Shown: positions 18,417 through 46,732 of the stretch, piece by piece | Layout of the letters: each line of letters begins with the position of its first letter | How positions within the stretch are numbered: position 1 is the first letter of the stretch | Assembly: GCA_000146045.2 (NCBI GenBank) | Contig: BK006942.2 | Span: 352,001 to 416,000 of the forward strand | Source of the DNA: TPA_inf: Saccharomyces | Lineage: Eukaryota | Direction of reading: 5' to 3' | Length of the DNA stretch: 64,000 nucleotides | Program-made: the position numbers and the translations under genes | Notes under the pieces: generated by a model | Seen by the model: only the letters and a program-made list of their open reading frames with translations | Told to the model about the DNA's origin: nothing | Databases searched by the model: none

Positions 18417-18488
18417 TCCGATATAGTGTAACGGCTATCACATCACGCTTTCACCGTGGAGACCGGGGTTCGACTCCCCGTATCGGAG
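18417..18488 (+). tRNA. tE(UUC): tRNA-Glu, anticodon UUC, 72 nt, intronless.
   Basis: Sequence TCCGATATAGTGTAACGGCTATCACATCACGCTTTCACCGTGGAGACCGGGGTTCGACTCCCCGTATCGGAG matches yeast tRNA-Glu. It has a GTTCGACTCC T-arm (B box), an A-box-like GTGTAACGG, and a CTTTCAC anticodon loop. A T7 run at ~18503-18509 serves as the Pol III terminator. Confidence 0.93.
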
Positions 18489-32608: not shown

Positions 32609-33346
32609 ATGGCTCTACCTCTGATAAAACCTAAGGAGTCTGAGGAAAGCCACCTCGCTCTTTTGTCCAAGATCCACGTGTCCAAAAATTGGAAACTGCC
32701 TCCAAGGTTGCCCCATAGAGCAGCTCAGCGGAGGAAAAGAGTTCATCGACTTCACGAAGATTACGAAACTGAAGAAAATGATGAGGAGCTACAGAAGAAA
32801 AAACGGCAGAATAGAGACGCCCAAAGGGCCTACAGAGAACGCAAAAACAACAAGTTGCAAGTGCTGGAGGAAACCATAGAGTCACTGAGTAAGGTCGTTA
32901 AAAACTACGAAACGAAACTAAACCGCCTCCAAAATGAACTTCAAGCGAAAGAATCGGAAAATCATGCCCTTAAACAGAAATTGGAGACCCTTACTCTGAA
33001 ACAAGCCTCTGTGCCTGCTCAGGACCCTATCCTGCAGAATTTGATCGAGAATTTCAAACCAATGAAGGCGATACCTATTAAGTACAATACCGCTATCAAG
33101 CGCCACCAGCACTCGACAGAACTGCCTAGCTCTGTCAAATGCGGCTTTTGTAACGACAACACTACTTGCGTTTGTAAAGAACTGGAAACAGATCACCGTA
33201 AAAGTGACGACGGTGTGGCCACAGAACAGAAGGATATGTCGATGCCACATGCAGAGTGCAATAATAAAGATAACCCCAATGGGCTCTGTAGTAATTGTAC
33301 TAATATCGACAAATCATGTATCGACATCCGGTCCATCATCCACTGA
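32609..33346 (+). CDS. YAP5: bZIP (YAP-family) iron-responsive transcription factor Yap5, 245 aa.
   Basis: ORF 32609..33346. YAP-type basic region (RQNRDAQRAYRERKNNKLQ), leucine zipper, and a C-terminal Cys-rich domain (CGFCNDNTTCVC...CSNC) consistent with Fe-S sensing. Confidence 0.88.
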   Translation: MALPLIKPKESEESHLALLSKIHVSKNWKLPPRLPHRAAQRRKRVHRLHEDYETEENDEELQKKKRQNRDAQRAYRERKNNKLQVLEETIESLSKVVKNYETKLNRLQNELQAKESENHALKQKLETLTLKQASVPAQDPILQNLIENFKPMKAIPIKYNTAIKRHQHSTELPSSVKCGFCNDNTTCVCKELETDHRKSDDGVATEQKDMSMPHAECNNKDNPNGLCSNCTNIDKSCIDIRSIIH

Positions 33347-35143
33347 AGAGAGAGAACTTCTTAATACTTATAAATACGTCATTGAACAGCTCAACTTTTG
33401 TAACGTCAAAAGAACGCACATGAAAGGAGTGACATTGCTTTTTTCTTTGCAAGTTTATTACTGTGGTTATGTGTAAAGAATTAGTTCATGGACATTGGCC
33501 GCAGAGTGCAAAAGCGTTTTGGACACCCCGCCTTTGGTGTTCTCGCCGCCATATTTTGAGACGTTAGTTTCCGACGAATTGAGCTGAAGCGGTGGACATT
33601 ATCTCAAGGTACCGCTTACTATGCCTATACATTCCTGCAATTTTTTTTTTTTTTTTTTTGATAAGTATTACTGGGTAATGGGAAGTATAATCACTAGGCA
33701 TATTATTTTTGACGCAGAGGAGTGGCAGCCTGTCTACTATGTAAATGTAATGGTAGAACCGTTATTATAACGTAAAATAGATCGTACATAAGAAAAACTG
33801 GACGCAAACCATTTAAATCTAAATGCGAATATGCGTACTGATTATTAACATGATACCATAATTTAGATCTTTCCTTTTGAAAGTCGTGTCAAATTCTAGT
33901 ATTGGCGGATGAGATCCTAATGTGCTAAACAATAGAGATAATGGGATCCCCGCAAATTTCATTTTTAAATTGCTTTCCTCTTCTGAGTTGAACACGAATT
34001 TTTGAGAATCTAGCTGTAGTTAGACGTTACGCAAAAGAAGCTTTGGCGCAAGCAAATCTCCTTCCATACTGGTCTCCTTTACGGCTGTACGAACACTACC
34101 GTAGTGACAAACTGAAAAACGAGGATTTGGTGAGCAGTCTGGAACAGGTAGATGAATCATAAAGCGCAGCAACCATCCTCGAACTGATGACAGTACGACT
34201 TTTCTCCAAAATAGATATAAAGAAAGGCTGGTTATTCGTGGAGAGTTCAGTCCTCCGTATCTAACCTTGATGAATTAAAACTCAGGCCAGAACAATCTCT
34301 TTAACAGACCTCCATACATACTCTCGGAGCTATATTTTAGTGCGATCAAACTGCGAATAGAATAAAGCAGACGCAAGAGGCAAATTACAAACTCTTGCGC
34401 TTCCTTTTTAGCGAGCTTGTTAAAGTAGGGTCTGAACGAGAGGCTGTCACAATTGCGTTGCGTTATGCAAAGGATATAACACGGTGCTGAAGTTAAACTG
34501 TGAAACTATACAAGTGGAGGACCCTTTGAGTTTTCTGTAGATAAAAAGGAGAATGTTTCAGAAGAGCGTCAGAGATCTCGAATGACAGATCGGTGGCTAC
34601 CACGAAATCTTATAGGCGTTTCTCTGGGCTCCCTAGTTACGTATAGCGCTGACGTAGTTTAGAAGGGCGCGCGCATTTTTTCTATTGTTGCCTCTTTTCT
34701 CGCTAGCTGGCTTTTAGCATCATGTTCTGCGGATATTATTCTCCGCCCGGAAGGTTCGTGGAAGGCCTAGAATGAGATCTATCAATAACGCTACGCAGAT
34801 TTCTAATGTTACATGTCACGTCGATCTGACATATATCTCCGTCAGGTTCGATCCAGACTCTCTGCGCGCGTACCAAGAGCTTTTTGTTTCAATAGGAACG
34901 GAATTTCCTTTATTGAATGTGGCAACGAACTGCGGAGGGTTATTAGCTTCTTGACACTTTCTTCGTCCATTACGTAGACCTAACGTTGAAAAGGAGACCT
35001 CGAAGAAATTTTAACTCTTGGCACCTCAGAATAAACAAGGTCATCTAGTGCGATGGCAATGCTTCAAAGTAAATGGAGAATTTCGAAGGCTAGCGTCTCT
35101 AGATAAATCTCAGCCTAACCCTTTTACACGAAGTTTTCCCAAC

Positions 35144-35144
<1 letters not shown>

Positions 35145-35172
<28 letters not shown>
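35145..35172. repeat. Homopolymer A28 tract in the ORF-free region between YAP5 and FLO11. A (GAAAA)5 microsatellite follows at ~35286-35310.
   Basis: Direct reading. Confidence 0.9.
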
Positions 35173-35174
<2 letters not shown>

Positions 35175-37571
35175 AGGGCGGTTGTCTTTGGCATATCGCG
35201 AAAATAATAGATCTTATCAAGGGGTTTTTAAGTCATCCTCTGATTATTGGAAGTCATAATCACGTTCAATGGTGGGAGGCCTTCGGAAAAGAAAAGAAAA
35301 GAAAAGAAAATTTTCTCAATCTGAAACAGTCTCTTGTTTACGTTACACTGGCAATTTTAACGGCGAGACTCATCTGAAAAAAGCTATTCGACTTAGTCCT
35401 GTGTTTTTCATTACAGATAATCCTGATCAACGGGTGTACGTTTTTCCATTTTAGGTCAGTATCCTCCCTCTGTGTTTCAAACTAAGTATAAGCGCCCACC
35501 CTAATTCGCTCGTATCCTTGTGTCAACTTCTTTGCTGCTCTGCAGCTGTAAACAGTTTTTGCGATAAGCCTCACATATGTCAGTGCTGTAAATACCGGAA
35601 ATAGAAAGTCACTGTGGTCTGTACCCTCATTTGATTTACGCGGTTAGAAAAGTGGAAACTCTTTCTTAACCGTGTAAATCAAGTATGTCATTTCAGGAAA
35701 CTTCCTCAATTCTTGGCGTACTATATTGAGTTGCCAATGTATGAGAGTGGTCGATTTCAATCGGCAACATTCTATCTCGCAATTACGCAATAAAAATTGA
35801 CATGGTATGTTATTTTCATCCTTCGGATTTTTCAAACCATTCTGTTATAAGAGATATGTACCATCAATCGCCGACAGCGATACCCTCTTTAACCTCTAGT
35901 AAGAAGGACCCGGCACTTATTGTAATACGTTTAGGGGAAGTAGGTAAATCTGGACCGGTAATACGGCATAACGATCCATTTCGGACATCGGGGACATTTC
36001 TTTTTTTTCCTTTATTATTTTTTTTTTCTAATGTCCTTACGAATTTCAGGCTCTAACCTTATTTCTTATTAGGACGTGTACTCATTGCCATCGCAACAAT
36101 AAAAATAAAACATTAATAAAAAATTAATTAGAGCCTGTAACATAGAGATCAACGCTACTGTAGCGTTAGAAGGACAGTGAGAGAGTGGCATGACAATTAA
36201 AGTTTCTTCCGATTACTTCATGTCATCTGCATTACAAAGGAAGGAAAGATGTTTCGAATTATTTCCCCTTTAAGGTATTTTTGATGTGAAATTTGACCCC
36301 ATACTGTGAAAATCAACTGCTAAGAACTCTGTGATCTTCTAAGATAAAAAGGCGGGCCCCTTTTTTCTTCTATATCTATTTATTATCTAAATATGCTTAC
36401 ATAAGCAAAATATACCGGGGTAGTTAGTGCACGCGGGGAACTACCTCTTTCTTACCGGATCTTGCCGCATCCTTTTTTCTGTTCATTCTCAGAAAAAAGA
36501 GGCTTTTTTTCGTGAATACAGTCCGAAGAGCACTAGAATTTCGGACCGAAATTAGTAATATCTTCTGTACGAAAAAGGAAGACCCCTTTTCGTACAGAAG
36601 CCTTGGTCAATCAGAACAGGCAACGTTGTTTTTTCTACTCCGGAATTTTCTGAGCGAAGACAATCGGCCCTGAAGAGAGGATCAATCGTGGAAATCTACA
36701 TCGTCCTCAAGAATTTCTAACGAGACTTCATGTCAAAATTTAACTTTTTTAGCTTTTTTTTAAGGTTGGCCCGCCAAAATCGTAAGTCTCGGTGCTCTGT
36801 TTAGGAAATAAAGAAGAGAAACGTCACCTAAAAAGTTTAAATTGAAGATGTCGTTCTATCTCGCGAATCTTAAATGAAAGACAGAGTGGGTTGATGACAC
36901 TAGCGGACTTGTCATTAAATAACCCATGATATCTAGGCACATTAAGGTTAGCGTGGGGGGACGCGAATAATATAAGCATTACTCCAGTAAACTCACATAG
37001 AAAGAAGGAAATATTCTTTGTTCAAAGAGCAAAGGTGCCTGTAAAGATCCTCTTATTCATCAAAGCCTGGTCGAAGATTATTAGTTGTGCCAAGGCAATA
37101 TCAGGTTTATTAATCTTTTAGGAAAAATGTAAGGTTGTTACGTCTCTTTCCGTCTCGCGGAAAAACATTTTTACTCAAGCCGTCCGTGGGATGATTTTTG
37201 GTGGTTATCATTTTCCAAGACTCCAGACAAAAGAACGTGCAGGCGCTTGGCAAAAAGAAAAAAAAAAAAAGCGAGAGGGAAAAGTGGCGCGGTGCCAATA
37301 CTACCGGTACTTGTTCTTGAATAAGCTATCAGATGGTCAAAATAGGGCTAGAAGAAAAATGGTAAAATAAAGTAAAAAAAGGTAAAAGATAATTTTTGAA
37401 GAACTAAAAAATATGTAAATGAATATGTATTCTACGGGTAGTTTTCTGCCTTACAAAATTATGGCAGCGAAAACAGAATGGTGGAAGAAAGTAAAGAGGG
37501 TATCGAAATAATATCTTAATTTAAGAATGAAAACATCGTAATGAAGAAACGAACATGTTGGAATTGTATCA

Positions 37572-40500
37572 TTAGAATACAACTGGAAGAGCGAGTAGCA
37601 ACCACATAAAGTTTCCAAGAACCTTGATATTAGCAGCACCTTGGTAAGTACTCGAGATAGAAGGAACAGAGTATGTAGCGACTGCAGAACCAGAAGCAGA
37701 TTGTAGTGGACCAGTTAGAGATGGAGATGTGACAACGGGAGCCACGCTAGAAGCAGAAGCTGTTGTAGCTAGTTGGGATGTAGTCTTGATTGAAATAGGG
37801 TTGGTTGCTGTGGCCACAGTTTCGTAATTCTTGGCACCATTTGAACCTGGAATCAAAGTGGTTATGTAAGTGGTTGGGATGGACTTGGTTGTGTAACCAG
37901 TTGTTGTTTCGCCAGCGGAGTTAGTACCAACAGATGACTCAGTGGTAATAACTGTGGTTGGAATAGCCGTCGTGACAGGGGTGGTAGCCGAAGGTGCAGT
38001 GTTTTCGCCTGCGCTTGCAGAACTTACGATAGTCTTAGCAGAGCATACAGATGTAGTTTCACCGGCAGCGTTTGTAGCAGCAGAACATTCAGTAGTGGTT
38101 ATTGTAGTTGGTACGGCATTAGTGGCAGGAGTTACTGGTGCACTTGGAGCCAAAGTGGTTACATAGGTGGTTGGTACAGACTTTGTTGTGTAACCAGTTG
38201 TCGTCTTACCAGCGGAGTTAGTACCCGTAGAGGATTCAGTGGTAACAACGGTGGTTGTGACAGCTGTTGTAACAAGGGTGGTAGCTTCAGTAGTGTATTC
38301 GCCAGTACCAGTTGAACAAGGAACAGTGGTTGTGACAGTCTTTGGAGAGCATCCAGAGGTAGTTTCACCGGCAGAGTTTGTACCTGTAGAGCAAACCGTA
38401 GTAGTAATAGTGGTTGGGGTGAAATTGGTAACCGTAGTGACTGATGGAGTTGGAGCAATTGTGGTTAGGTAAGTGGTTGGAATGTTTTTGGTGACAAATG
38501 TAGTTGTAATTTCACCACCTGGTTTTGTACTAGTAGAATACTCAGTAGTAACGACGGTGGTTGAGACAACTGTAGTTACAGGTGTGGTAGGTGAAGTGGT
38601 TGTTGATTCCGAGGCGGTTTCGCTTGGACTGGTTGAACATGGAACAGTAGTTGTAATGGTCTTTGGAGAGCATCCAGAGGTAGTTTCACCGGCAGAGTTT
38701 GTTCCTGTAGAGCAAACTGTAGTAGTAATAGTGGTTGTTGATGATGTAGTGACAGAAGTCGTAGTTGTAGTTGGAACAGTAGTTGTAACGGTCTTTGGAG
38801 AGCATCCAGAGGTAGTTTCACCGGCAGAGTTTGTTCCTGTAGAGCAAACCGTAGTGGTAATAGTGGTTGTTGATGGTGTAGTGACAGAAGTCGTAGTTTT
38901 AGTTGGAACAATGGTAGTTTCGGTTGTAGAAGAAACAGAGGTTTCTGTTTGACTGCCAGGGTATTTGGATGATGATGGAGTGACAGTAGTGCCAGTAGAA
39001 AAGCTTTCAGTAGTAGAGCTGAATGGAATTGAAGATGGAGCGGAGGAAGTGATGTTGCTAGAGGAAGATGGGGTTGGTACTGGTGCTACAGAGCTTTCAG
39101 TGGTGGAGCTGGATACTGGAGCAGAAGAGCTTTCAGTAGTAGAGCTTGATGGGGTTGGTACTGGAACAGAAGAGCTTTCAGTGCTAGAGCTGAATGGGGT
39201 TGAAGATGGAGCGGAGGAAGTGATGTTGCTAGAGGAAGATGGGGTTGGTACTGGTGCTACAGAGCTTTCAGTAGTAGAGCTTGATGGGGTTGGTACTGGA
39301 GCAGAAGAGCTTTCGGTAGTAGAGCTGGATGGAGTTGGCACTGGAGCAGAAGAGCTTTCAGTAGTAGAGCTGGATGGAGTTGGTACTGGAGCAGAAGAGC
39401 TTTCAGTGGTAGAGCTGGTTACTGGAGCAGAAGAGCTTTCAGTAGTAGAGCTGGATGGAGTTGGTACTGGAGCAGAAGAGCTTTCAGTAGTAGAGCTGGA
39501 TGGAGTTGGTACTGGAGCAGAAGAGCTTTCAGTAGTAGAGCTGGATGGAGTTGGTACTGGAGCAGAAGAGCTTTCAGTGGTAGAGCTGGTTACTGGAGCA
39601 GAAGAGCTTTCAGTGGTAGAGCTGGTTACTGGAGCAGAAGAGCTTTCAGTAGTAGAGCTGGATGGAGTTGGTACTGGAGCAGAAGAGCTTTCAGTAGTAG
39701 AGCTGGATGGGGTTGGTACTGGAGCAGAAGAGCTTTCAGTAGTAGAGCTGGATGGAGTTGGTACTGGAGCAGAAGAGCTTTCAGTGGTAGAGCTGGTTAC
39801 TGGAGCAGAAGAGCTTTCAGTAGTAGAGCTTGATGGGGTTGGAGCTGGAGCAGAAGAGCTTTCAGTAGTAGAGCTTGATGGAGTTGGTACTGGAGCAGAA
39901 GAGCTTTCAGTAGTAGAGCTTGATGGAGTTGGCACTGGAGCAGAAGAGCTTTCAGTGGTGGAGCTGGTTACTGGAGTAGAAGAGCTTTCAGTAGTAGAGC
40001 TGGATGGAGTTGGTACTGGAGCAGAAGAGCTTTCAGTGGTAGAGCTGGTTACTGGAGCAGAAGAGCTTTCAGTGGTGGAGCTTGATGGGGTTGGAGCTGG
40101 AGCAGAAGAGCTTTCAGTAGTAGAGCTGGATGGAGTTGGTACTGGAGCAGAAGAGCTTTCAGTGGTAGAGCTGGTTACTGGAGCAGAAGAGCTTTCAGTA
40201 GTAGAGCTGGATGGAGTTGGTACTGGAGCAGAAGAGCTTTCAGTGGTAGAGCTGGTTACTGGAGCAGAAGAGCTTTCAGTAGTAGAGCTGGATGGAGTTG
40301 GTACTGGAGCAGAAGAGCTTTCAGTGGTAGAGCTGGTTACTGGAGCAGAAGAGCTTTCAGTGGTAGAGCTGGTTACTGGAGCAGAAGAGCTTTCAGTGGT
40401 AGAGCTGGTTACTGGAGCAGAAGAGCTTTCAGTGGTAGAGCTGGTTACTGGAGCAGAAGAGCTTTCAGTAGTAGAGCTGGATGGAGTTGGTACTGGAGCA

Positions 40501-41675
40501 GAAGAGCTTTCAGTGGTAGAGCTGGTTACTGGAGCAGAAGAGCTTTCAGTGGTAGAGCTGGTTACTGGAGCAGAAGAGCTTTCAGTAGTAGAGCTTGATG
40601 GGGTTGGTACTGGAGCAGAAGAGCTTTCAGTGGTAGAGCTGGTTACTGGAGCAGAAGAGCTTTCAGTAGTAGAGCTGGATGGAGTTGGTACTGGAGCAGA
40701 AGAACTTTCAGTAGTAGAGCTTGATGGGGTTGGTACTGGAGTAGTAGTCTTCTTAGTGCATGTCTTAGATGTGGTAGTTTTCTTCTTTGTACATGGAGTG
40801 GTGTCGTGATGAGGAGGTGTAGGCTTTTCCTTTGTGCATGAGGTAGTGGTTGGGGGTGTAGGCTTTTCCTTAGTGCATGAGGTAGTGGTTGGTGTAGCAG
40901 GAGCGGTGGTTGATGATGATGTAGATGACTCGGAAGTGCTAGATGTAGTGGTAGATGACTCGGAAGTGCTAGATGTAGTGGTAGATGACTCGGAAGTGCT
41001 AGATGTAGTGGTAGATGACTCGGAAGTGCTAGATGTAGTGGTAGATGACTTCGTACCGCCACAATTATTGTCACAATCTATGTTCCAATAGAAGCCTGGG
41101 AAATCCGTTTGAGAGTGGCCTTGATTGTCATAGTTGTTACAACCAGTAGACAAATCAAAAGATGTAGTTCCCCATTGCCAGGAGCTTGCATATTGAGCGG
41201 CACTACCTTGCAAATACTCGAATTGAATTTGGAAGTTAGGCATCCACACCTGACAGCTGTTGACATCTTGTGTGGCATAAACTTCAAAAGTGGCTGTGAA
41301 ATCAGTTGGGTTGTCAATCAAATAGGTATTTTCGTTGTAACCGTATAGTTGGACGGTACCTTTTGGACCAGTGACACCAATGATTTTCAAAGACCATAGA
41401 TACTTCAGGTCAATATTTTCTTTACCTTTGACATGAATAGTGATTTGGTATGTGTTGTCTTGAACCCAAGAAACGGAAGTCACATCCAAAGTATACTGCA
41501 TGATATTTTGCTGGTCCATGTGCCAATTGAAGTCTAAGTTGGGACAGCCATTAACGATAGAATTACAGCTAGTTCCTTCGGAGGATCCTCTTGGAACTAG
41601 TGCAGTTGGAAAACCCAAAGCCGAGTTAAATAGAAGCGAAAGGACCAAATAAGCGAGTAGAAATGGTCTTTGCAT
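37572..41675 (-). CDS. FLO11: GPI-anchored cell-surface flocculin/adhesin Flo11 (Muc1), 1367 aa: signal peptide, N-terminal Flo11 adhesion domain, very long Ser/Thr-rich tandem-repeat stalk, C-terminal GPI signal.
   Basis: ORF 37572..41675 minus strand. N-terminus MQRPFLLAYLVLSLLFNSALG. Central ~1.8 kb of near-perfect tandem repeats encodes SSTTESSSAPVPTPS-type units. Hydrophobic C-terminus (NFMWLLLALPVVF) preceded by small residues, consistent with a GPI omega site. Confidence 0.95.
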   Translation of the reverse strand: MQRPFLLAYLVLSLLFNSALGFPTALVPRGSSEGTSCNSIVNGCPNLDFNWHMDQQNIMQYTLDVTSVSWVQDNTYQITIHVKGKENIDLKYLWSLKIIGVTGPKGTVQLYGYNENTYLIDNPTDFTATFEVYATQDVNSCQVWMPNFQIQFEYLQGSAAQYASSWQWGTTSFDLSTGCNNYDNQGHSQTDFPGFYWNIDCDNNCGGTKSSTTTSSTSESSTTTSSTSESSTTTSSTSESSTTTSSTSESSTSSSTTAPATPTTTSCTKEKPTPPTTTSCTKEKPTPPHHDTTPCTKKKTTTSKTCTKKTTTPVPTPSSSTTESSSAPVPTPSSSTTESSSAPVTSSTTESSSAPVPTPSSSTTESSSAPVTSSTTESSSAPVTSSTTESSSAPVPTPSSSTTESSSAPVTSSTTESSSAPVTSSTTESSSAPVTSSTTESSSAPVTSSTTESSSAPVPTPSSSTTESSSAPVTSSTTESSSAPVPTPSSSTTESSSAPVTSSTTESSSAPVPTPSSSTTESSSAPAPTPSSSTTESSSAPVTSSTTESSSAPVPTPSSSTTESSSTPVTSSTTESSSAPVPTPSSSTTESSSAPVPTPSSSTTESSSAPAPTPSSSTTESSSAPVTSSTTESSSAPVPTPSSSTTESSSAPVPTPSSSTTESSSAPVPTPSSSTTESSSAPVTSSTTESSSAPVTSSTTESSSAPVPTPSSSTTESSSAPVPTPSSSTTESSSAPVPTPSSSTTESSSAPVTSSTTESSSAPVPTPSSSTTESSSAPVPTPSSSTTESSSAPVPTPSSSTTESSVAPVPTPSSSSNITSSAPSSTPFSSSTESSSVPVPTPSSSTTESSSAPVSSSTTESSVAPVPTPSSSSNITSSAPSSIPFSSTTESFSTGTTVTPSSSKYPGSQTETSVSSTTETTIVPTKTTTSVTTPSTTTITTTVCSTGTNSAGETTSGCSPKTVTTTVPTTTTTSVTTSSTTTITTTVCSTGTNSAGETTSGCSPKTITTTVPCSTSPSETASESTTTSPTTPVTTVVSTTVVTTEYSTSTKPGGEITTTFVTKNIPTTYLTTIAPTPSVTTVTNFTPTTITTTVCSTGTNSAGETTSGCSPKTVTTTVPCSTGTGEYTTEATTLVTTAVTTTVVTTESSTGTNSAGKTTTGYTTKSVPTTYVTTLAPSAPVTPATNAVPTTITTTECSAATNAAGETTSVCSAKTIVSSASAGENTAPSATTPVTTAIPTTVITTESSVGTNSAGETTTGYTTKSIPTTYITTLIPGSNGAKNYETVATATNPISIKTTSQLATTASASSVAPVVTSPSLTGPLQSASGSAVATYSVPSISSTYQGAANIKVLGNFMWLLLALPVVF
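38950..40760. repeat. Coding minisatellite inside FLO11: dozens of head-to-tail copies of ~30- and ~45-nt units (…gcagaagagctttcagtagtagagctggatggagttggtactgga… on the + strand). Flanking shorter arrays sit at 40895-41050 (30 nt x4, coding SSTSESSTTT) and 38630-38900.
   Basis: Direct reading. The same 30-45 nt motif recurs almost perfectly across ~1.8 kb. This generates the long artefactual antisense ORF 38965..40809 in the track. Confidence 0.95.
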
Positions 41676-41883
41676 AGTGTGCGTATATGGATTTTTGAGG
41701 CCTACAAAAGTATATTTTAATTAGAACCACAACATGACGAGGGATAATAACTGATGAATAGGGTGCTTTTTATACGTTTATTTTAGGAAGCAAGAGATCC
41801 TTTTTATCAATTGGGAACCCTTCAACAATTTGTACTGGTAAGTCTATGAGTTATCCGTTCTTGAACTAGAAGAGAGCGCAGTA

Positions 41884-44800
41884 ACGTAAATGCTTGAACA
41901 TATTTGTTAAGGTAAATAAAACTGCCCTAATTTTTTATTTAATTCGAACACGGACATTCCTCAGATAAGACAAGTCTAACAGTTAATTCAAAGTAGAAAG
42001 AGCTTAATTTCTCCGTAAAAGAACGAAGTATATTGCGATGATGCCTTGAATCCCAATTGGTAACTCTATGACATTTTTGTAAAGGTTACCTCATCAGAAG
42101 AGAACGGACCTAAAAAGATGACCCACATTTCTCTAGAAACAATCGTACCCTAATAGTTGCTTTAAATTGCTCAGCGGTCAAGAAAACGTATCATAATGTT
42201 ATTCTATTCTTGAGCAGGCACTTTTAGGGTTGGGCAATGTCCTCAAAGTAAATATTAGTAAACAAACGAATACCTCCAAATCCATTGAATTGAAAATCCA
42301 TTCCAAGCTCTGCGCTTCCAATTGTTAATCACACCACCGATAGGCAATAGAAGTTCTGTCCGTGAAGATACCGCAGAATGAGTTGTGCCCGTATTGTTGC
42401 ACCTAATTACGGAATCCCAAGGTATGCGATGTCCCAGTACGACCGTTAAAAAGACAACATGAATGACTGATCTGTTTAAGAGTATAGGCAGAAATAAAAA
42501 AGTTTGTGCAATGCCTGACAAAAAAAAGCTAATTTTTCTTTTAAGAAAGAATGTCATTCTTTTACCGCAAAGTTAATTTCTGCCTACAATCACCTTCTAA
42601 ACGCTCGGACTGATTGCCTTGAGCAATCAGCAGTTCTTTGAAGCCACTGTCGCAACAAAGAAAAAGAAAAGGGAAGTCCATTCTTAGCCCCAAAGAAAAG
42701 GATGACAAAAAAAAGAAAAAAAGTTAACTCGTACCAGTAAAGCCTAATTTTGCAGTGATCGCTAGCCCCAGAGAAGGACTAAAGACAAAAAGGACCCACT
42801 CGATAGGAAAATAACGGCCGAAACTCTTTGGGCGACATTTTCTTGTTAAGAAAACAGAAGAAAAAAACCTTAATTTGAACTTTCCAGGCACACCCAAAAA
42901 GGATTATGCTTATGTAATGCCACATTCCGAGAAACTGAAAGGCAAAAAAGAAAAAGCCTTTTTTTTCCTGCCGCGAAAGTTTAATTTGCCTACCGGCGTT
43001 CCTATTGGAGTCAGGAAAAGATCACTAGGAATTACAGCTGTGAGAACATACTCTGGGGCTGGCGTAGGCACACAATCCGGTATTCCTAAAGTTTTGTGGT
43101 ACAAAACTCCATACCTAAAACATAAAACAAATCTCACCCGTGGATCCTTTTATTCATAATACCCCGTCCTGCACGCCGTGGAACTGAGTCTAAGTTGACA
43201 AGGCTACGAATGAATTTTGGGAAATGCATACGAAGAGGACTGAAAAAGTAGCAGGTTTCATGTGGTGGAAATACCGATTAGCGCATTCACATTCGTGTTA
43301 GGGTCCGTTTTCCCGCACAGCTTTCGAAATATGAAACAATGTCCGTCTGCGTCAGCAGCTCAGATAAGGAAAAAAGAGATGGTAAAAAACATTCGAGAAA
43401 AACAAGTACTGCAGGTGCATGTCCTCAATGCATGCAAGTGACCGTTTTGGGGTGGTGAGAACCATCACTAATTAAACTTTTCCTATTTTTTGTCTTTACA
43501 ATATTCATTAGTCTTCATTCGCATTGGGTGTTCTACAGAAATGCTGGGCAAATCTGGAGATGGGTTGATACGCTAGCGTTCCTACTTGTAAGGGAGCAAA
43601 GATGTTAGATTTTTCTGTTTTGGAATTTTAGCTTTCTGTCCACCTTAGGTGTATGGCTCGGCTCTCGATGAGAATAGGAAAGTATTCCGCACTAACCGAT
43701 GGGGGGTTGTTCTTACCGTAAAACCACACTTGAAAGCTATACGTAGTTGGAACCCCAAAACGACGGTATGAAATGAGGGATACATTAGGGGACAAAAAGG
43801 ACTAGTAATTTCTTTGAAATTTGTAATAATAATTCGAAAAGTTGAGCATCCTTAATCTGACATGGCACACAGATGAAAAGGTGTTGAAAGCACTGTAAAA
43901 GAGGTTAAGAAATATCCTCTTTTCAACGAGCTTCATTTTGAGTATAATATGTTTATATTTGTCGCTGGCCCTGAGATGCTCAACTGTAAGTAAAACATCG
44001 GATGTGTGGATAAAAAGAACATGGAAAACGAGTGCAGCAACGACTATATTTAAAATAGTATCATTCATAATTCGATAGATGGACTTTTCAGCTACTTGTA
44101 AACGGCGAAATTGTGTCTAAGTTGTGAATGAGCTTTTCATTTTCATTTGCGTACCGAAGTGGTAAAACTGACGACCTAAAGTACGATATACGGAATAAAG
44201 CAAGTTCTAATACTCTCTGCAGTTTGACCAGTGCTACTTGGCGCTGTTCATTCCAATTAGCCGTAAATTTGTGAAATAGATCCCAAGATAATCTCCGTTT
44301 TATTTGCTTCCAAAGAGGTTATCTTTTTAATAGTTGGCATTTTCTAGCTTCTTGGTTGCTATAAGGCATAGTTGAAGTGCAGTGAGAGGAAGAGGGGAAC
44401 TCACGGAAAGAGACTCCTTATACTTTTGTCAACCGGTGTGTTCCAAAATTCGCTAGTTAAACGTTTTATTAGCAGCGGTCCCATTGAGCCAAAACCCCGC
44501 TGAGCGTTGCGACACAATCTGATCATACCACATAATCATTGCAGCGCCTACTTTTTAACTTCTAGCAGCCAAATTGTTATTCAGATTTAGTTGGCGGTAC
44601 GACTCCTTACAGCAGTAAATTATTCGAATTAGTAACAAACGAGTGATTGGTATGTGGAGATAGGAAACGAAGACTGAGCAGAAGCACCCACGCTAAGTAA
44701 TTGTATTCTTGAATTGGGAGCCTGAAGAATTATGATCAAGCTCAGCATCTTTCCGTAGCGTCTTCGAGAATTTGTCCTGTGAGCGGAAGGTTGAAAGTTA

Positions 44801-45082
44801 TAAATGATGTCTTATTTTTTTGCATGATCTCCCCAGACCCAGATGTCATCTGTAAAGAATTTAGTAGGACAATTGAAGACGCTGTCTTCCAATTGATTCA
44901 GCGAAACCTTTTCTTAAGATCATTCATATTCTTGTCAAAACACAGATCAGCGTCATATTATTCTTGTCTCGACATTAGGCCGTAATTTCGTCGAAGAAAA
45001 ATGATCTATGTCATTGTAAATATCTACAATTCCAGCTATTTACGATAATCACGTTAGAATCTTTTGAATGAATGTCTTTCGA
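41884..45082 (-). ncRNA. ICR1: Approximate position of the ~3.2 kb regulatory lncRNA ICR1, transcribed through the FLO11 promoter towards FLO11. Coordinates are from memory of the reference annotation, not derived from sequence.
   Basis: Established knowledge only: ICR1 starts ~3.4 kb upstream of the FLO11 ATG and represses FLO11 in cis. Nothing in the raw sequence lets me confirm the transcript boundaries. Confidence 0.35.
43900..45000 (+). ncRNA. PWR1: Approximate position of lncRNA PWR1, antisense to the 5' part of ICR1. It promotes FLO11 expression by interfering with ICR1. Boundaries uncertain.
   Basis: Established knowledge only (the Sfl1/Flo8-controlled ncRNA toggle). Cannot be verified from sequence alone. 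Confidence 0.25.
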
Positions 45083-45293
45083 TACTTTTCCACGCTTGAA
45101 AGTTCGCATTCTTTTGGCGTTTTGTATCCTTATTATTCCAAACTTTGATCCGTTTCAACAACGGAAAAGGGAAAAATGAAAAAGTGCTGGTAAGTGAAAA
45201 ATTATGAAAACTCGCTAAACGGCGAAGTTTAGATGTGAGACAAGCAGCAATGGAAGTATAGGTTGGTATTGAATATCTGTGGTTACTCTAAAG

Positions 45294-46385
45294 ATGTCTC
45301 CGAAGAATATAACAAGGTCGGTGATCCCGGCTATAGATTTGTATTGCCGCAAAGCAAATTTTAAAACTCTAAAATCATTGTCGATGATCCTAGGTAGTAA
45401 AAAAGAATGGTATGACACTAAAAAGGCGCCATTGAGAACCTTTTTGGTCTCTCGATGTGGCATTTTCGAGCAGTTGAGGGGTCGTCTCGTTGAAGATGGC
45501 AAAGTCAACTTGTTTAGTGTTTTCCTGACAAACGACTCATTTTCTTTTTGCAAGATGACCGTTGATGATAAGTTCAACACTAGCTTGGTCGATTGGCAAA
45601 AAATACCCTTTGACAGTACATTTGCAACTGACAGAAGACAGAATATCAGTTTACTACCTGTTGATACACTGTTTGCAACTGAAAAGATCATATCGATTCT
45701 TGGTGTATCTCCTAATATGACGAATCTTGTTTCTATAGAAAGAGAGCGATCAGACCTGGTGGATTTTAATTGTAAACTGCAATCAAACATCCTAGAACAC
45801 CTACTATACGCGAAATGCCAAGGAGTGTACGTAACTTCTACCAATGAAAAAGCTCGTTTGCTTGCAGCTGTCTGCAATCCTGAATTCATTGACACCTTCT
45901 GGTGCGAATTGACTCCCATAAGAGTCTCATTAAAGGAAAACCCTTCCATTTCTGTACCTCGAGAATATCAGATGTACGATCCGGTGGTACGTGCCACTAT
46001 AAAGGAGGTTGTCACCAAGCGATTACTGCGATCCGCCTTCGATAATGACATCGACCCGCTAATGTGTCTTCATTTGGATAAAGGCTGGAAACTTAAATTC
46101 CCCATACTATCCTCGACAACGGGCCTAAACTTCTCCCTGAAGGATTGTCTTTCCCTGGACACAGGAAAAGATGCATCTGATATGACAGAGGTGTTTCTCG
46201 CTACTATGGAGTCGAGTAAAGTTCTTCGTACGTATAGCAACCTCGTTGACATTGTGATGAAGGACAATGGTAGGTTGGACTCAGGCGTCCTAAAGCAATT
46301 CAACGACTACGTTAAGCAAGAAAAGCTCAATCTACAACATTTTCAGGCCGGTTCCTCAAAGTTTCTCAAAGGCGCAAAGATATAA
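45294..46385 (+). CDS. MRS1: Mitochondrial group I intron splicing factor Mrs1 (RNase H-fold / Cce1-related), ~363 aa from Met at 45294 (track ORF begins at 45279).
   Basis: ORF 45279..46385. Size and position between FLO11 and SEC11. The long antisense ORF 45215..45949(-) overlaps it and corresponds to a dubious ORF (YIR020C-B). Confidence 0.75.
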   Translation: MSPKNITRSVIPAIDLYCRKANFKTLKSLSMILGSKKEWYDTKKAPLRTFLVSRCGIFEQLRGRLVEDGKVNLFSVFLTNDSFSFCKMTVDDKFNTSLVDWQKIPFDSTFATDRRQNISLLPVDTLFATEKIISILGVSPNMTNLVSIERERSDLVDFNCKLQSNILEHLLYAKCQGVYVTSTNEKARLLAAVCNPEFIDTFWCELTPIRVSLKENPSISVPREYQMYDPVVRATIKEVVTKRLLRSAFDNDIDPLMCLHLDKGWKLKFPILSSTTGLNFSLKDCLSLDTGKDASDMTEVFLATMESSKVLRTYSNLVDIVMKDNGRLDSGVLKQFNDYVKQEKLNLQHFQAGSSKFLKGAKI

Positions 46386-46732
46386 TCCTCTTATATAGCA
46401 TGTAAATAGAAAGTACGTAAAAAAAAGCTACTATTGACTTTATTCTCCGTGAGGGCGGTTCTTTCTGTAGCTGTTGGTTTTTTCCAGATCTTATGTGACA
46501 CACCTGCACAACAATGTCATTCTCTGTCAGCTGCAAGACTCCCAAGACCACGAAGCTGCTGGTATCTTCTATTTCAGAGAGCGCTGTTGCTCTTATTATT
46601 ATTACCATACGTATACTTTTTTCCATTGGCAAAAGCGATTTCAAAAAAATAATCTCCAAGGAAATAAATGGTGCAGAAACAATATACTACAGAAATATAC
46701 CGGAAAGTAAACCCCAAGGGAGTTAGCACAAG

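Follow-up and report, generated by a model that had tools for sequence, protein, structure and literature searches.

The FLO11–MRS1 interval of Saccharomyces cerevisiae: a long non-coding regulatory region spanned by the ICR1 and PWR1 transcripts

Genes flanking the FLO11 upstream region

The window analysed, a 64-kb stretch of S. cerevisiae DNA, contains a gap of 3618 bp (41676-45293, measured from ATG to ATG) between FLO11 and MRS1. One side is bounded by FLO11 (37572-41675, minus strand), which reads away from the gap and encodes a protein of 1367 aa comprising a Flo11 domain (PF10182, residues 43-193, E 1.3e-71) and Ser/Thr-rich tandem repeats. The other side is bounded by MRS1 (45294-46385, plus strand), whose 363-aa product, a member of the Ydc2/MRS1 family, has exactly the sequence of Mrs1p from strain S288C (NP_012287.3). 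Exact S288C matches were also obtained for YIR020C, YIR020W-A, YIR020C-B and YIR021W-A. The sequence is therefore the S288C-type FLO11 (YIR019C)–MRS1 (YIR021W) interval, the strain identity being given by the exact matches of the neighbouring genes. S288C carries the flo8-1 allele, as had been remarked when the DNA was read from its letters alone (hereafter the sequence-only reading); the FLO8 gene lies outside the 64-kb window. With both flanking genes identified, the boundaries that this reading had given for the region are correct.

At an ORF threshold of 150 aa, this is the second-largest ORF-free stretch in the window (3539 bp), the median at this threshold being 437 bp; overall, median ORF-free gaps of 347-437 bp were obtained for the window. 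The region had been described as one of the largest promoters in the yeast genome, and the literature agrees, reporting an unusually long FLO11 promoter of ~3.5 kb (PMC2745563), a value that the gap of 3618 bp fits.

Conservation of the gap among Saccharomyces species

The gap was compared in five species, namely S. cerevisiae, S. mikatae, S. kudriavzevii, S. arboricola and S. uvarum; S. arboricola was left out for the region 3' of FLO11, where its segment contains a run of Ns. The length of the gap is kept across the species, at 3493-3637 bp. The most conserved block (42725-43075, positions -1050 to -1400 relative to the FLO11 ATG) reaches a conservation of 0.835, compared with 0.755 for the MRS1 coding sequence and 0.64 for control intergenic DNA, and it carries non-triplet indels. 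This peak coincides with the reported hub of the Sfl1/Flo8 'toggle' at about -1.2 kb. The half of the gap occupied by PWR1 and the 5' part of ICR1, the two non-coding transcripts discussed below, is poorly conserved (0.48-0.49), which would fit RNAs that act via their transcription and not via their sequence. A distal spacer of ~1.2 kb (1054-1211 nt among the species) shows pairwise identities of 0.48-0.60, lower than those of neighbouring promoters. A literature search found no paper on the interspecies conservation of ICR1/PWR1 or on a promoter shared by MRS1 and ICR1.

Factor-binding sites

The FLO11 TATA box, TATAAAAA (41767-41774, minus strand, -99 to -92), is identical in all five species (conservation 1.00), and so is the Ste12 pheromone-response element TGAAACA (43332-43338, plus strand, -1663 to -1657; conservation 1.00). 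Tec1 TCS sites occur nine times in the gap against 4.4 expected (P = 0.047). Two inverted TCS (CATTCT) half-sites form the palindrome AAGAATGACATTCTT (42547-42561), which is kept in four of the five species (conservation 0.83). In another palindrome, CTGATTGC-N5-GCAATCAG (42610-42630, conservation 0.86), the arms are almost unchanged while the length of the spacer varies among species. The amplicon of published primers for a flor-yeast deletion is located in the gap at 42588-43061; this 111-bp deletion raises FLO11 expression (PMC4182726).

The literature places both Sfl1 and Flo8 at about -1.2 kb, with a hub and nucleosome-free region at -1200 (PMC8617999, PMC2745563), in line with the sequence-only reading, which had the two factors competing for the same region. 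Its suggestion that the Sfl1 motif AGAA-n-TTCT be sought at about -1.1 to -1.4 kb was borne out only in part: a scan of the hub over these positions found no strict motif (AGAANTTCT), whose single match in the gap is at -682, but HSE-like GAA/TTC units are present there. They form an HSF-type cluster (42840-42884, -1209 to -1165) that includes TTC-N7-GAA (42840-42852) and GAAAGTTC (42877-42884), and could represent the pair of Sfl1 dimer sites reported around -1160/-1200 (PMC2745563). Closer to FLO11, the HSE-like TTCTTGAA (41858-41865, -190 to -183, conservation 0.78) is a candidate for the proximal Sfl1 site that Octavio et al. reported at 'about -200' (PMC2745563).

Scans of the gap found no Gcn4 (TGASTCA), Rim101 or Rme1 sites, and the counts of Nrg1, Mig1, Phd1/Sok2 and TATA consensus sequences in the gap were not above those in shuffled sequences. 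A 14-nt inverted repeat bracketing the hub was discarded as being at about chance level, roughly one such pair being expected by our estimate.

The ICR1 and PWR1 transcripts

Published primers for ICR1 and PWR1 fall inside the gap, the RT primer for PWR1 lying in the expected orientation at 44771-44789. For the conversion of chrIX coordinates to the window an offset of 352000 was used, which is based on the SGD R64 coordinates of FLO11 and agrees with the positions of neighbouring ORFs. PWR1, which runs antisense to ICR1 over its 5'-terminal third, would then presumably occupy 43999-44939 on the plus strand (chrIX 395999-396939 in SGD), an interval consistent with the site of the RT primer. 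The offset is within 3 bp of an older-release position given in PMC3128112. With it, the published ICR1 interval, chrIX 393884-397082 (PMC7263678 Table 1), maps to 41884-45082 on the minus strand, so that ICR1, with its 3199 nt in the FLO11 sense, would extend from -209 to -3407.

According to the literature, ICR1 is a 3.2-kb sense transcript that represses FLO11 by promoter occlusion, and PWR1 is a transcript of about 1-1.2 kb, antisense to ICR1, that relieves this repression (PMC4398931, PMC8113380, PMC11012152); the toggle is set by Sfl1, Flo8 and Rpd3L (PMC4398931, PMC8113380, PMC11012152, PMC7970126). Mutually exclusive transcription of the two RNAs, repression of FLO11 in cis only, and displacement of factors or deposition of nucleosomes by the passing polymerase likewise belong to the published picture. 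The sense ICR1 and antisense PWR1 transcription that had been proposed for the region is in agreement with published work. In strain W303, RNAPII and R-loop signals extend over about 3 kb, matching ICR1 (bioRxiv 10.1101/2025.08.14.670160).

The ICR1 interval covers eight of the nine TCS sites, the pheromone-response element and the Sfl1/Flo8 hub, and its 3' end is about 110 nt before the FLO11 TATA box. A conserved block with a TATA-like AATAATAAGG (45112-45162, minus strand, conservation 0.86) precedes the 5' end of ICR1 by 30-80 nt and the ATG of MRS1 by 132-182 nt, and it is probably a promoter region common to the divergent ICR1 and MRS1. Another TATA-like sequence, TATAATATGTTTATATTT (43940-43961), 40-60 nt upstream of the presumed PWR1 start, is partly conserved, and the PWR1 start region as such is weakly conserved across the species.

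The proposed switch and possible control by factors alone

The interval 41676-45293 is very probably the FLO11 upstream regulatory region, a non-coding array of factor sites with an ICR1/PWR1 switch. The present analysis shows which locus this is, how it is laid out, that it is non-coding and how it is conserved, while the transcripts and the switch logic are taken from the literature. The array would consist of the TATA box at about -95, the Tec1 TCS sites, the Ste12 element and the Sfl1/Flo8 hub, which reaches from about -1.05 to -1.4 kb. The start of ICR1 would be roughly 210 bp from the MRS1 ATG, and its transcription would proceed for 3.2 kb toward FLO11 across all of the upstream activating sites. 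PWR1 transcription would begin roughly 2.3 kb upstream of FLO11 and proceed the opposite way across the ICR1 start. With Sfl1 on the hub, PWR1 would be off and ICR1 transcription would sweep factors off the FLO11 promoter, leaving FLO11 off. With Flo8 on the hub, helped by Rpd3L, PWR1 would be on and interfere with ICR1, and FLO11 could then fire. The outcome of such a switch would be heritable ON/OFF variegation of FLO11.

The region could also operate as an enhancer/silencer through its factors only, with silencing by Sfl1-Hda1/Tup1-Ssn6 opposed to activation by Flo8, Tec1, Ste12 and Phd1, and with ICR1 and PWR1 as non-causal by-products of the open divergent MRS1 promoter and the chromatin state. 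The footprints at the factor sites are strong and the hub is conserved like coding sequence, as this explanation would have it, and the distal, RNA-only half is the least conserved part of the gap. The ICR1 start adjoins the conserved block upstream of MRS1, which is what divergent promoter transcription predicts. Octavio et al. explained silencing via Sfl1 and Hda1, without the RNAs (PMC2745563), and a review treats it as open whether lncRNA synthesis in itself drives switching (PMC7970126). However, several reviews describe, after Bumgarner 2009 and 2012, action in cis only and displacement of factors by ICR1 transcription. The gap has moreover retained its length even though the distal sequence has been free to change, a fact that hints at constraint beyond the factor sites. 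The primary paper on ICR1/PWR1 is said to show that early termination of ICR1, without any deletion of DNA, derepresses FLO11 in cis. Control by factors alone is therefore considered unlikely, and the array with its ICR1/PWR1 switch is the preferred reading.

Short ORFs inside the gap

Three short ORFs are found in the gap. YIR020C (42255-42557, minus strand; 100 aa) is an S. cerevisiae-only ORF inside ICR1 and on the ICR1 strand. YIR020W-A (42917-43159, plus strand), an ATG ORF of 80 aa, lies over the conserved hub. An unnamed ORF of 88 aa (43802-44068, minus strand) is located in the poorly conserved distal region, on the ICR1 strand. The sequence-only reading had these frames at the right positions, and none is longer than chance allows; its 94-aa frame (42875-43159, plus strand), however, begins at a TTG codon at 42875, not at an ATG, and is an extension of YIR020W-A. 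Its statement that these are dubious ORFs in the reference was mistaken: a RefSeq protein (NP_001257681.1) exists for YIR020C, which is labelled 'Uncharacterized', not 'Putative uncharacterized', and 43802-44068 bears only the label 'unnamed protein product / cosmid 9168' and has no systematic name.

When the gap was shuffled 1000 times with its dinucleotides preserved, the longest ATG ORF measured 82 +/- 22 aa, and ORFs of at least 100 aa arose with P = 0.18; ATG ORFs of at least 80 aa were expected 0.68 times and observed three times (P = 0.026). A Pfam search of the gap ORFs and YIR020C-B gave no match. All of the short ORFs are broken by stops or frameshifts in S. mikatae, S. kudriavzevii, S. 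arboricola and S. uvarum: the YIR020C frame meets its first stop at codon 22-47 in each of the four, and the 88-aa ORF has neither a start codon nor an open frame in the relatives. The gap is non-coding, as its ORFs are of chance length, disrupted in relatives and devoid of Pfam matches, and the indels in the hub are not in triplets.

The excess of ORFs of at least 80 aa could suggest that among YIR020C, YIR020W-A and the 88-aa ORF there is at least one young protein-coding gene confined to S. cerevisiae. YIR020C stays 100 aa long in many strains, in addition to having its RefSeq entry, and ICR1, on whose strand both YIR020C and the 88-aa ORF lie, is an NMD substrate and so is engaged by ribosomes (PMC3128112). 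A young gene is nevertheless very unlikely, given that the frames are broken in four of four other species, that no domains were found and that even the longest ORF is within chance; as for YIR020W-A, the hub beneath it shows clearly non-coding conservation, with 1-nt indels. YIR020C is most likely not a functional gene, and YIR020W-A is a chance ORF.

The antisense ORF over MRS1

A longer ORF, YIR020C-B (45215-45949, minus strand; 244 aa), is antisense to the 5' half of MRS1. It is read in the antisense frame that shares its third codon positions with MRS1, and this frame contains 3-7 stops per species, compared with 14-23 in the other two antisense frames. Stops are rare in it, as each requires a Tyr, His or Gln codon in a specific context. 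In synonymous shuffles of MRS1 the longest antisense run was 168 +/- 41 codons, and runs of at least 224 codons were reached with P = 0.083. The longest antisense runs in the MRS1 genes of other Saccharomyces species are 106-174 codons, and all five of these species have an antisense stop at MRS1 codons 107/108, corresponding to 45612-45617 and to an ancestral GAT TAT. In S. cerevisiae this stop was lost because of a Tyr108Ser change in MRS1.

The sequence-only reading had located this ORF where ICR1 initiates and had seen in that initiation a plausible reason for the persistence of the frame. The location is incorrect: YIR020C-B, which is on the same strand as ICR1, terminates 133 nt before the ICR1 interval begins and lies wholly outside it. 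The explanation fails with it, since the length of the ORF is within what the MRS1 codons produce by chance and the frame is interrupted in all five relatives. That the 244-codon frame is maintained because ICR1 transcription initiates there would be supported by the short distance between the two and by the retention of a long ORF in S. cerevisiae strains, where its length is 244 aa or 278 aa. Yet non-coding transcription selects for no open frame, the frame is stop-poor in every species and the product has no Pfam match, which makes such maintenance extremely improbable. From the sequences compared, YIR020C-B emerges as a by-product of the MRS1 coding frame that is restricted to one lineage, was brought about by Tyr108Ser and has no link to ICR1. 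It resembles the antisense 'shadow' ORFs of the SGD dubious-ORF class in having a long open frame with third positions aligned to the sense codons, and no difference from them was noted; YIR020C-B is a typical case, present in one species only and polymorphic in length among strains.

RNA structure

Rfam covariance models gave no match in 41000-46500 at E <= 1, and at the gathering score only a tRNA, located elsewhere, was recovered from the whole 64-kb window. Consensus folding gave a signal at 42484-42683 (z about -5.6 to -6.6) that has the same strength on either strand and is due to two DNA palindromes, the arms of which barely vary and display no compensatory changes; RNA structure was rejected as the source of such signals in the gap. 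It is hardly credible that ICR1 or PWR1 is a structured or trans-acting RNA, because the folding signal that would speak for it is strand-symmetric and palindrome-derived, no Rfam family was matched, the region of overlap between the RNAs is the least conserved, and the literature classes both as strictly cis-acting.

Comparison with known systems

The locus is the one at which the ICR1/PWR1 toggle was described (Bumgarner et al. 2009, 2012; S. cerevisiae chrIX), as the flanks, the named ORFs, the ICR1 interval and the primers all match. There is no difference in kind, but the mechanism was established in Sigma1278b, whereas the window is S288C-type sequence.

The arrangement of ICR1 and FLO11 is similar to that of SRG1 and SER3, where likewise a sense ncRNA begins upstream, runs across the sites that activate the adjacent gene and represses that gene in cis. 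The two systems differ in that ICR1 is about 3.2 kb long, compared with about 0.5 kb for SRG1, and is opposed by an antisense transcript, PWR1. Furthermore, SRG1-SER3 provides a graded metabolic response, while FLO11 adopts heritable bistable states linked to Hda1/Rpd3L chromatin. The CD-CUTs of the subtelomeric genes ZRT1 and FIT3 (Toesca et al. 2011, PMC3128112) are also upstream sense transcripts that are NMD-sensitive, controlled by Rpd3 and repress the downstream gene, and the parallel with ICR1 was drawn by Toesca et al. themselves (PMC3128112). Unlike ICR1, which is annotated to end 209 nt before the FLO11 ATG, these CD-CUTs are 5'-extended forms of the mRNAs.

Significance

The control of FLO11 is a standard model for the generation of heritable differences between the cells of a unicellular organism, in adhesion, biofilm formation and filamentous growth, and also for cis-acting non-coding transcription. 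The FLO11 promoter and the ICR1/PWR1 toggle are already known, and confirming that the window holds this locus teaches the field nothing new. What the present analysis contributes is modest, namely a quantitative footprint, in which the Sfl1/Flo8 hub is as conserved as coding sequence over five species and the PWR1 half is not, the finding that the ICR1 start adjoins a block conserved upstream of MRS1, and the tracing of YIR020C-B to the Tyr108Ser change in MRS1 instead of to ICR1. Tentatively, the conservation pattern may mean that the toggle is kept throughout the genus as a geometry consisting of the hub, the ICR1 start block (45112-45162) and a fast-evolving spacer between them. If so, selection would act on the length of the region and on the act of ICR1/PWR1 transcription, and not on the RNAs.

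Locus identity and gene content

The interval 41676-45293 is flanked on one side by a 1367-aa ORF (37572-41675, minus strand) that has a Flo11 domain by Pfam (E 1.3e-71) and long tandem repeats rich in Ser/Thr, and on the other by a 363-aa ORF of the Ydc2/MRS1 family (45294-46385, plus strand). In an exact-sequence look-up the product of the latter is S288C Mrs1p (NP_012287.3); the look-up also identified YIR021W-A (46514-46726, plus strand). The Flo11-domain ORF and the exact Mrs1p and YIR matches thus define the 3618-bp FLO11-MRS1 intergenic region directly; the sequence-only reading had named this locus correctly, and it is well known already. The FLO11 product itself had no exact match in a collection of 15 billion proteins, while the neighbouring products all match S288C exactly. 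Its repeat array is crossed antisense by a 614-codon TTG ORF (38965-40809, plus strand).

At a 150-aa threshold, 3539 bp of this gap are ORF-free, the second-longest such stretch in the window (median 437 bp). The longest, which with a 100-aa threshold measures 4225 bp (33347-37571), is not FLO11 promoter; it lies 3' of the gene, between a 245-aa ORF (32609-33346, plus strand) and the FLO11 stop, so that FLO11 is flanked on both sides by very long ORF-poor DNA. The 1.8 kb adjoining the stop have an identity of 0.70 with S. mikatae and 0.60 with S. uvarum, without a strongly conserved block. A tRNA-Glu (anticodon TTC, 18417-18488, plus strand) is the sole Rfam or ARAGORN match in the 64-kb window.

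Non-coding transcripts

Chromosomal positions were converted with an offset of 352000, which rests on the SGD R64 coordinates of FLO11 and also fits the positions of the neighbouring ORFs; by its SGD coordinates PWR1 would occupy 43999-44939 (plus strand). The offset agrees within 3 bp with older-release coordinates (PMC3128112), and places ICR1 (chrIX 393884-397082, 3199 nt; PMC7263678) at 41884-45082 (minus strand), or -209 to -3407 from the FLO11 ATG.

The identity of the locus, its layout, its non-coding character and its conservation are results of this analysis; the transcripts and their switch logic are taken from the literature. ICR1, of 3.2 kb and in FLO11 sense, represses FLO11 via promoter occlusion; PWR1, of about 1-1.2 kb and antisense to ICR1, lifts this repression; and the choice between them is set by Sfl1, Flo8 and Rpd3L (PMC4398931, PMC8113380, PMC6097775, PMC5889882, PMC11012152, PMC7970126). 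Even W303 shows an RNAPII and R-loop signal of about 3 kb corresponding to ICR1 (bioRxiv 10.1101/2025.08.14.670160). The Sfl1 and Flo8 sites overlap within a nucleosome-free region at -1200, an Sfl1 dimer is bound at two sites around -1160, and an additional putative Sfl1 site is located at about -200 (PMC2745563). The earlier description of the gap as a FLO11 control region with ICR1, PWR1, Sfl1 and Flo8 agrees with these studies (PMC2745563, PMC4398931, PMC8113380, PMC11012152).

The RT primers that have been published for ICR1 and PWR1 map within the gap. The 'ICR1' first-strand cDNA primer of PMC11827858, CCAGATTTGCCCAGCATTTC, matches the minus strand at 43538-43557 and has the polarity of ICR1 RNA, so that, as printed, it is unable to prime on ICR1; the PWR1 primer (44771-44789, minus strand) is correctly oriented. 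'ICR1' and PWR1 were found to fall together in that study (PMC11827858).

Conservation and regulatory sites

From ATG to ATG the gap measures 3618 bp in S. cerevisiae, compared with 3637 in S. mikatae, 3493 in S. kudriavzevii, 3572 in S. arboricola and 3508 in S. uvarum, which indicates that the unusual length is old and has been retained. Conservation was expressed as the share of the other four species (loci L001, L003, L006 and L005, respectively, in the orthologous gap alignment) identical to S. cerevisiae. It is 0.67 between -1 and -1000, 0.74 between -1001 and -2000, 0.48 between -2001 and -3200, and 0.63 in the final 418 bp adjoining MRS1, compared with 0.755 for the MRS1 coding sequence and 0.64 for seven neighbouring intergenic regions pooled. 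The interval presumed to encode PWR1 scores 0.49. The peak, 0.835 between -1050 and -1400 (42725-43075), coincides with the published Sfl1/Flo8 site and falls within the amplicon 42588-43061 of the primers for a flor-yeast deletion of 111 bp that raises FLO11 expression (PMC4182726). Since the alignment of this block contains 1-nt indels, its conservation is non-coding, despite the overlying YIR020W-A. The weak interspecies conservation of the distal gap fits a study describing, within the species, alleles that segregate at about -2800 and are under balancing selection (PMC6834051).

Two elements, the FLO11 TATA box (41767-41774) and a Ste12 PRE (43332-43338), do not differ among the five species. 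The gap is enriched in Tec1 TCS sites (9 against 4.4 expected, P = 0.047); seven of these fall between -280 and -1253, two of them as a palindromic pair at 42547-42561. This conserved palindrome (-886 to -872), AAGAATGACATTCTT, consists of two inverted Tec1 half-sites. Another, CTGATTGC-N5-GCAATCAG (42610-42630, -955 to -935), has nearly constant arms and a spacer of varying length among species. The proposed search for Sfl1 sites 1.1-1.4 kb upstream had a mixed outcome: the strict AGAA-n-TTCT motif occurs once, at -682, and is absent from the conserved block; HSF-type units are present there at -1209 to -1165, namely GAAAGTTC (42877-42884) and TTC-N7-GAA (42840-42852). Together with TTCTTGAA (-190 to -183), they match both locations described by Octavio et al. 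(PMC2745563), and we infer that all are candidate Sfl1 sites.

A block of 0.86 conservation with a TATA-like AATAATAAGG (45112-45162) is situated upstream of both the ICR1 5' end (by 30-80 nt) and the MRS1 ATG (by 132-182 nt), and probably represents a divergent promoter region common to ICR1 and MRS1. A further block, GAGACAAGAATAATATGACGC (0.89; 44950-44970), some 110-130 nt into the 5' region of ICR1, is close to the putative PWR1 3' end (44939). The most conserved block is flanked by a 14-nt inverted repeat, CGCTAGCCCCAGAG (42760-42773) and CTCTGGGGCTGGCG (43051-43064), complementary at 13 of 14 positions; the left arm has a conservation of 0.93, and by our own estimate chance alone would give about one such pair.

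The most serious alternative is that ICR1 and PWR1 are by-products and the bound factors do all of the work. Both the conservation pattern and a caveat in a review (PMC7970126) are compatible with it, but it is contradicted by cis-termination and single-cell results, as reported from the primary papers, and we regard it as improbable. The published ICR1/PWR1 toggle system acting on this sequence is very probably the correct reading.

Short and antisense ORFs

Exact-sequence look-up identified YIR020C (42255-42557, minus strand), YIR020W-A (42917-43159, plus strand) and a product of the original cosmid that has neither a name nor any other label (43802-44068, minus strand). The ORF table and translations place them as previously listed, except that the listed start, 42875, is the TTG of an extended form of YIR020W-A, whose ATG is at 42917. 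Their description as dubious in the reference fails for YIR020C, a RefSeq protein ('Uncharacterized protein' in UniProt), and for the cosmid product, known only as such; UniProt applies 'Putative uncharacterized' to YIR020W-A and YIR020C-B, not to YIR020C.

A coding function for these ORFs is most unlikely. They are not beyond chance: when the gap was shuffled 1000 times with dinucleotides preserved, the longest ATG ORF averaged 82 +/- 22 aa and reached at least 100 aa in 18% of shuffles. Three ORFs of at least 80 aa are somewhat more than the 0.68 expected (P = 0.026), but none matched Pfam, and all are broken by stops or frameshifts in the alignment with S. mikatae, S. kudriavzevii, S. arboricola and S. 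uvarum. Both YIR020C and the 88-aa cosmid ORF lie within ICR1 and on its strand; the reported NMD decay of ICR1 (PMC3128112) would fit translation of short ORFs of this kind by ribosomes on a 'non-coding' RNA.

YIR020C-B (45215-45949, minus strand; exact-sequence look-up) had been proposed to persist because ICR1 initiates there. This speculative idea is refuted, and we give it practically no credence. The mapped 5' end of ICR1 comes 133 nt downstream of the ORF's stop codon, which puts the ORF outside ICR1. The ORF is read in the antisense frame in which third codon positions fall on those of MRS1; in all six Saccharomyces MRS1 genes examined, this frame contains 3-7 stops, compared with 14-23 for the two remaining antisense frames. 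The scarcity of stops therefore belongs to the MRS1 coding sequence. Synonymous-codon shuffling within MRS1, preserving protein and codon usage, gave a longest antisense stop-free run of 168 +/- 41 codons, and the observed 224 was attained in 8.3%. The ORF lacks conservation: the longest runs in other species are 106-174 codons, with an antisense stop at MRS1 codons 107/108 in all five. These codons (45612-45617) read GAT TAT (Asp-Tyr) in the closest MRS1 relative (L007), S. mikatae and S. kudriavzevii, and GAC AGT (Asp-Ser) in S. cerevisiae; thus a single protein change in the S. cerevisiae lineage removed the stop and created the long frame. Within S. cerevisiae its length is 244 or 278 aa by strain. 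YIR020C-B is an ordinary 'shadow' ORF.

A structured or trans-acting RNA was rejected as having next to no likelihood: consensus folding of the gap found no strand-specific structure, the sole strong signal (42484-42683) has the same strength on either strand and arises from the two DNA palindromes at 42547-42561 and 42610-42630, which show no compensatory changes, and Rfam had no match in the FLO11-MRS1 region, as expected.

Evolution of the region

The one point that is mildly new is a genus-wide pattern: the length of the gap is kept, the -1050 to -1400 block is conserved at a coding-like level, the block at the ICR1 start is conserved, and the PWR1 half evolves fast. Read from sequence comparison, this pattern suggests that what selection may preserve is the geometry of transcription and not the sequence of the RNA.
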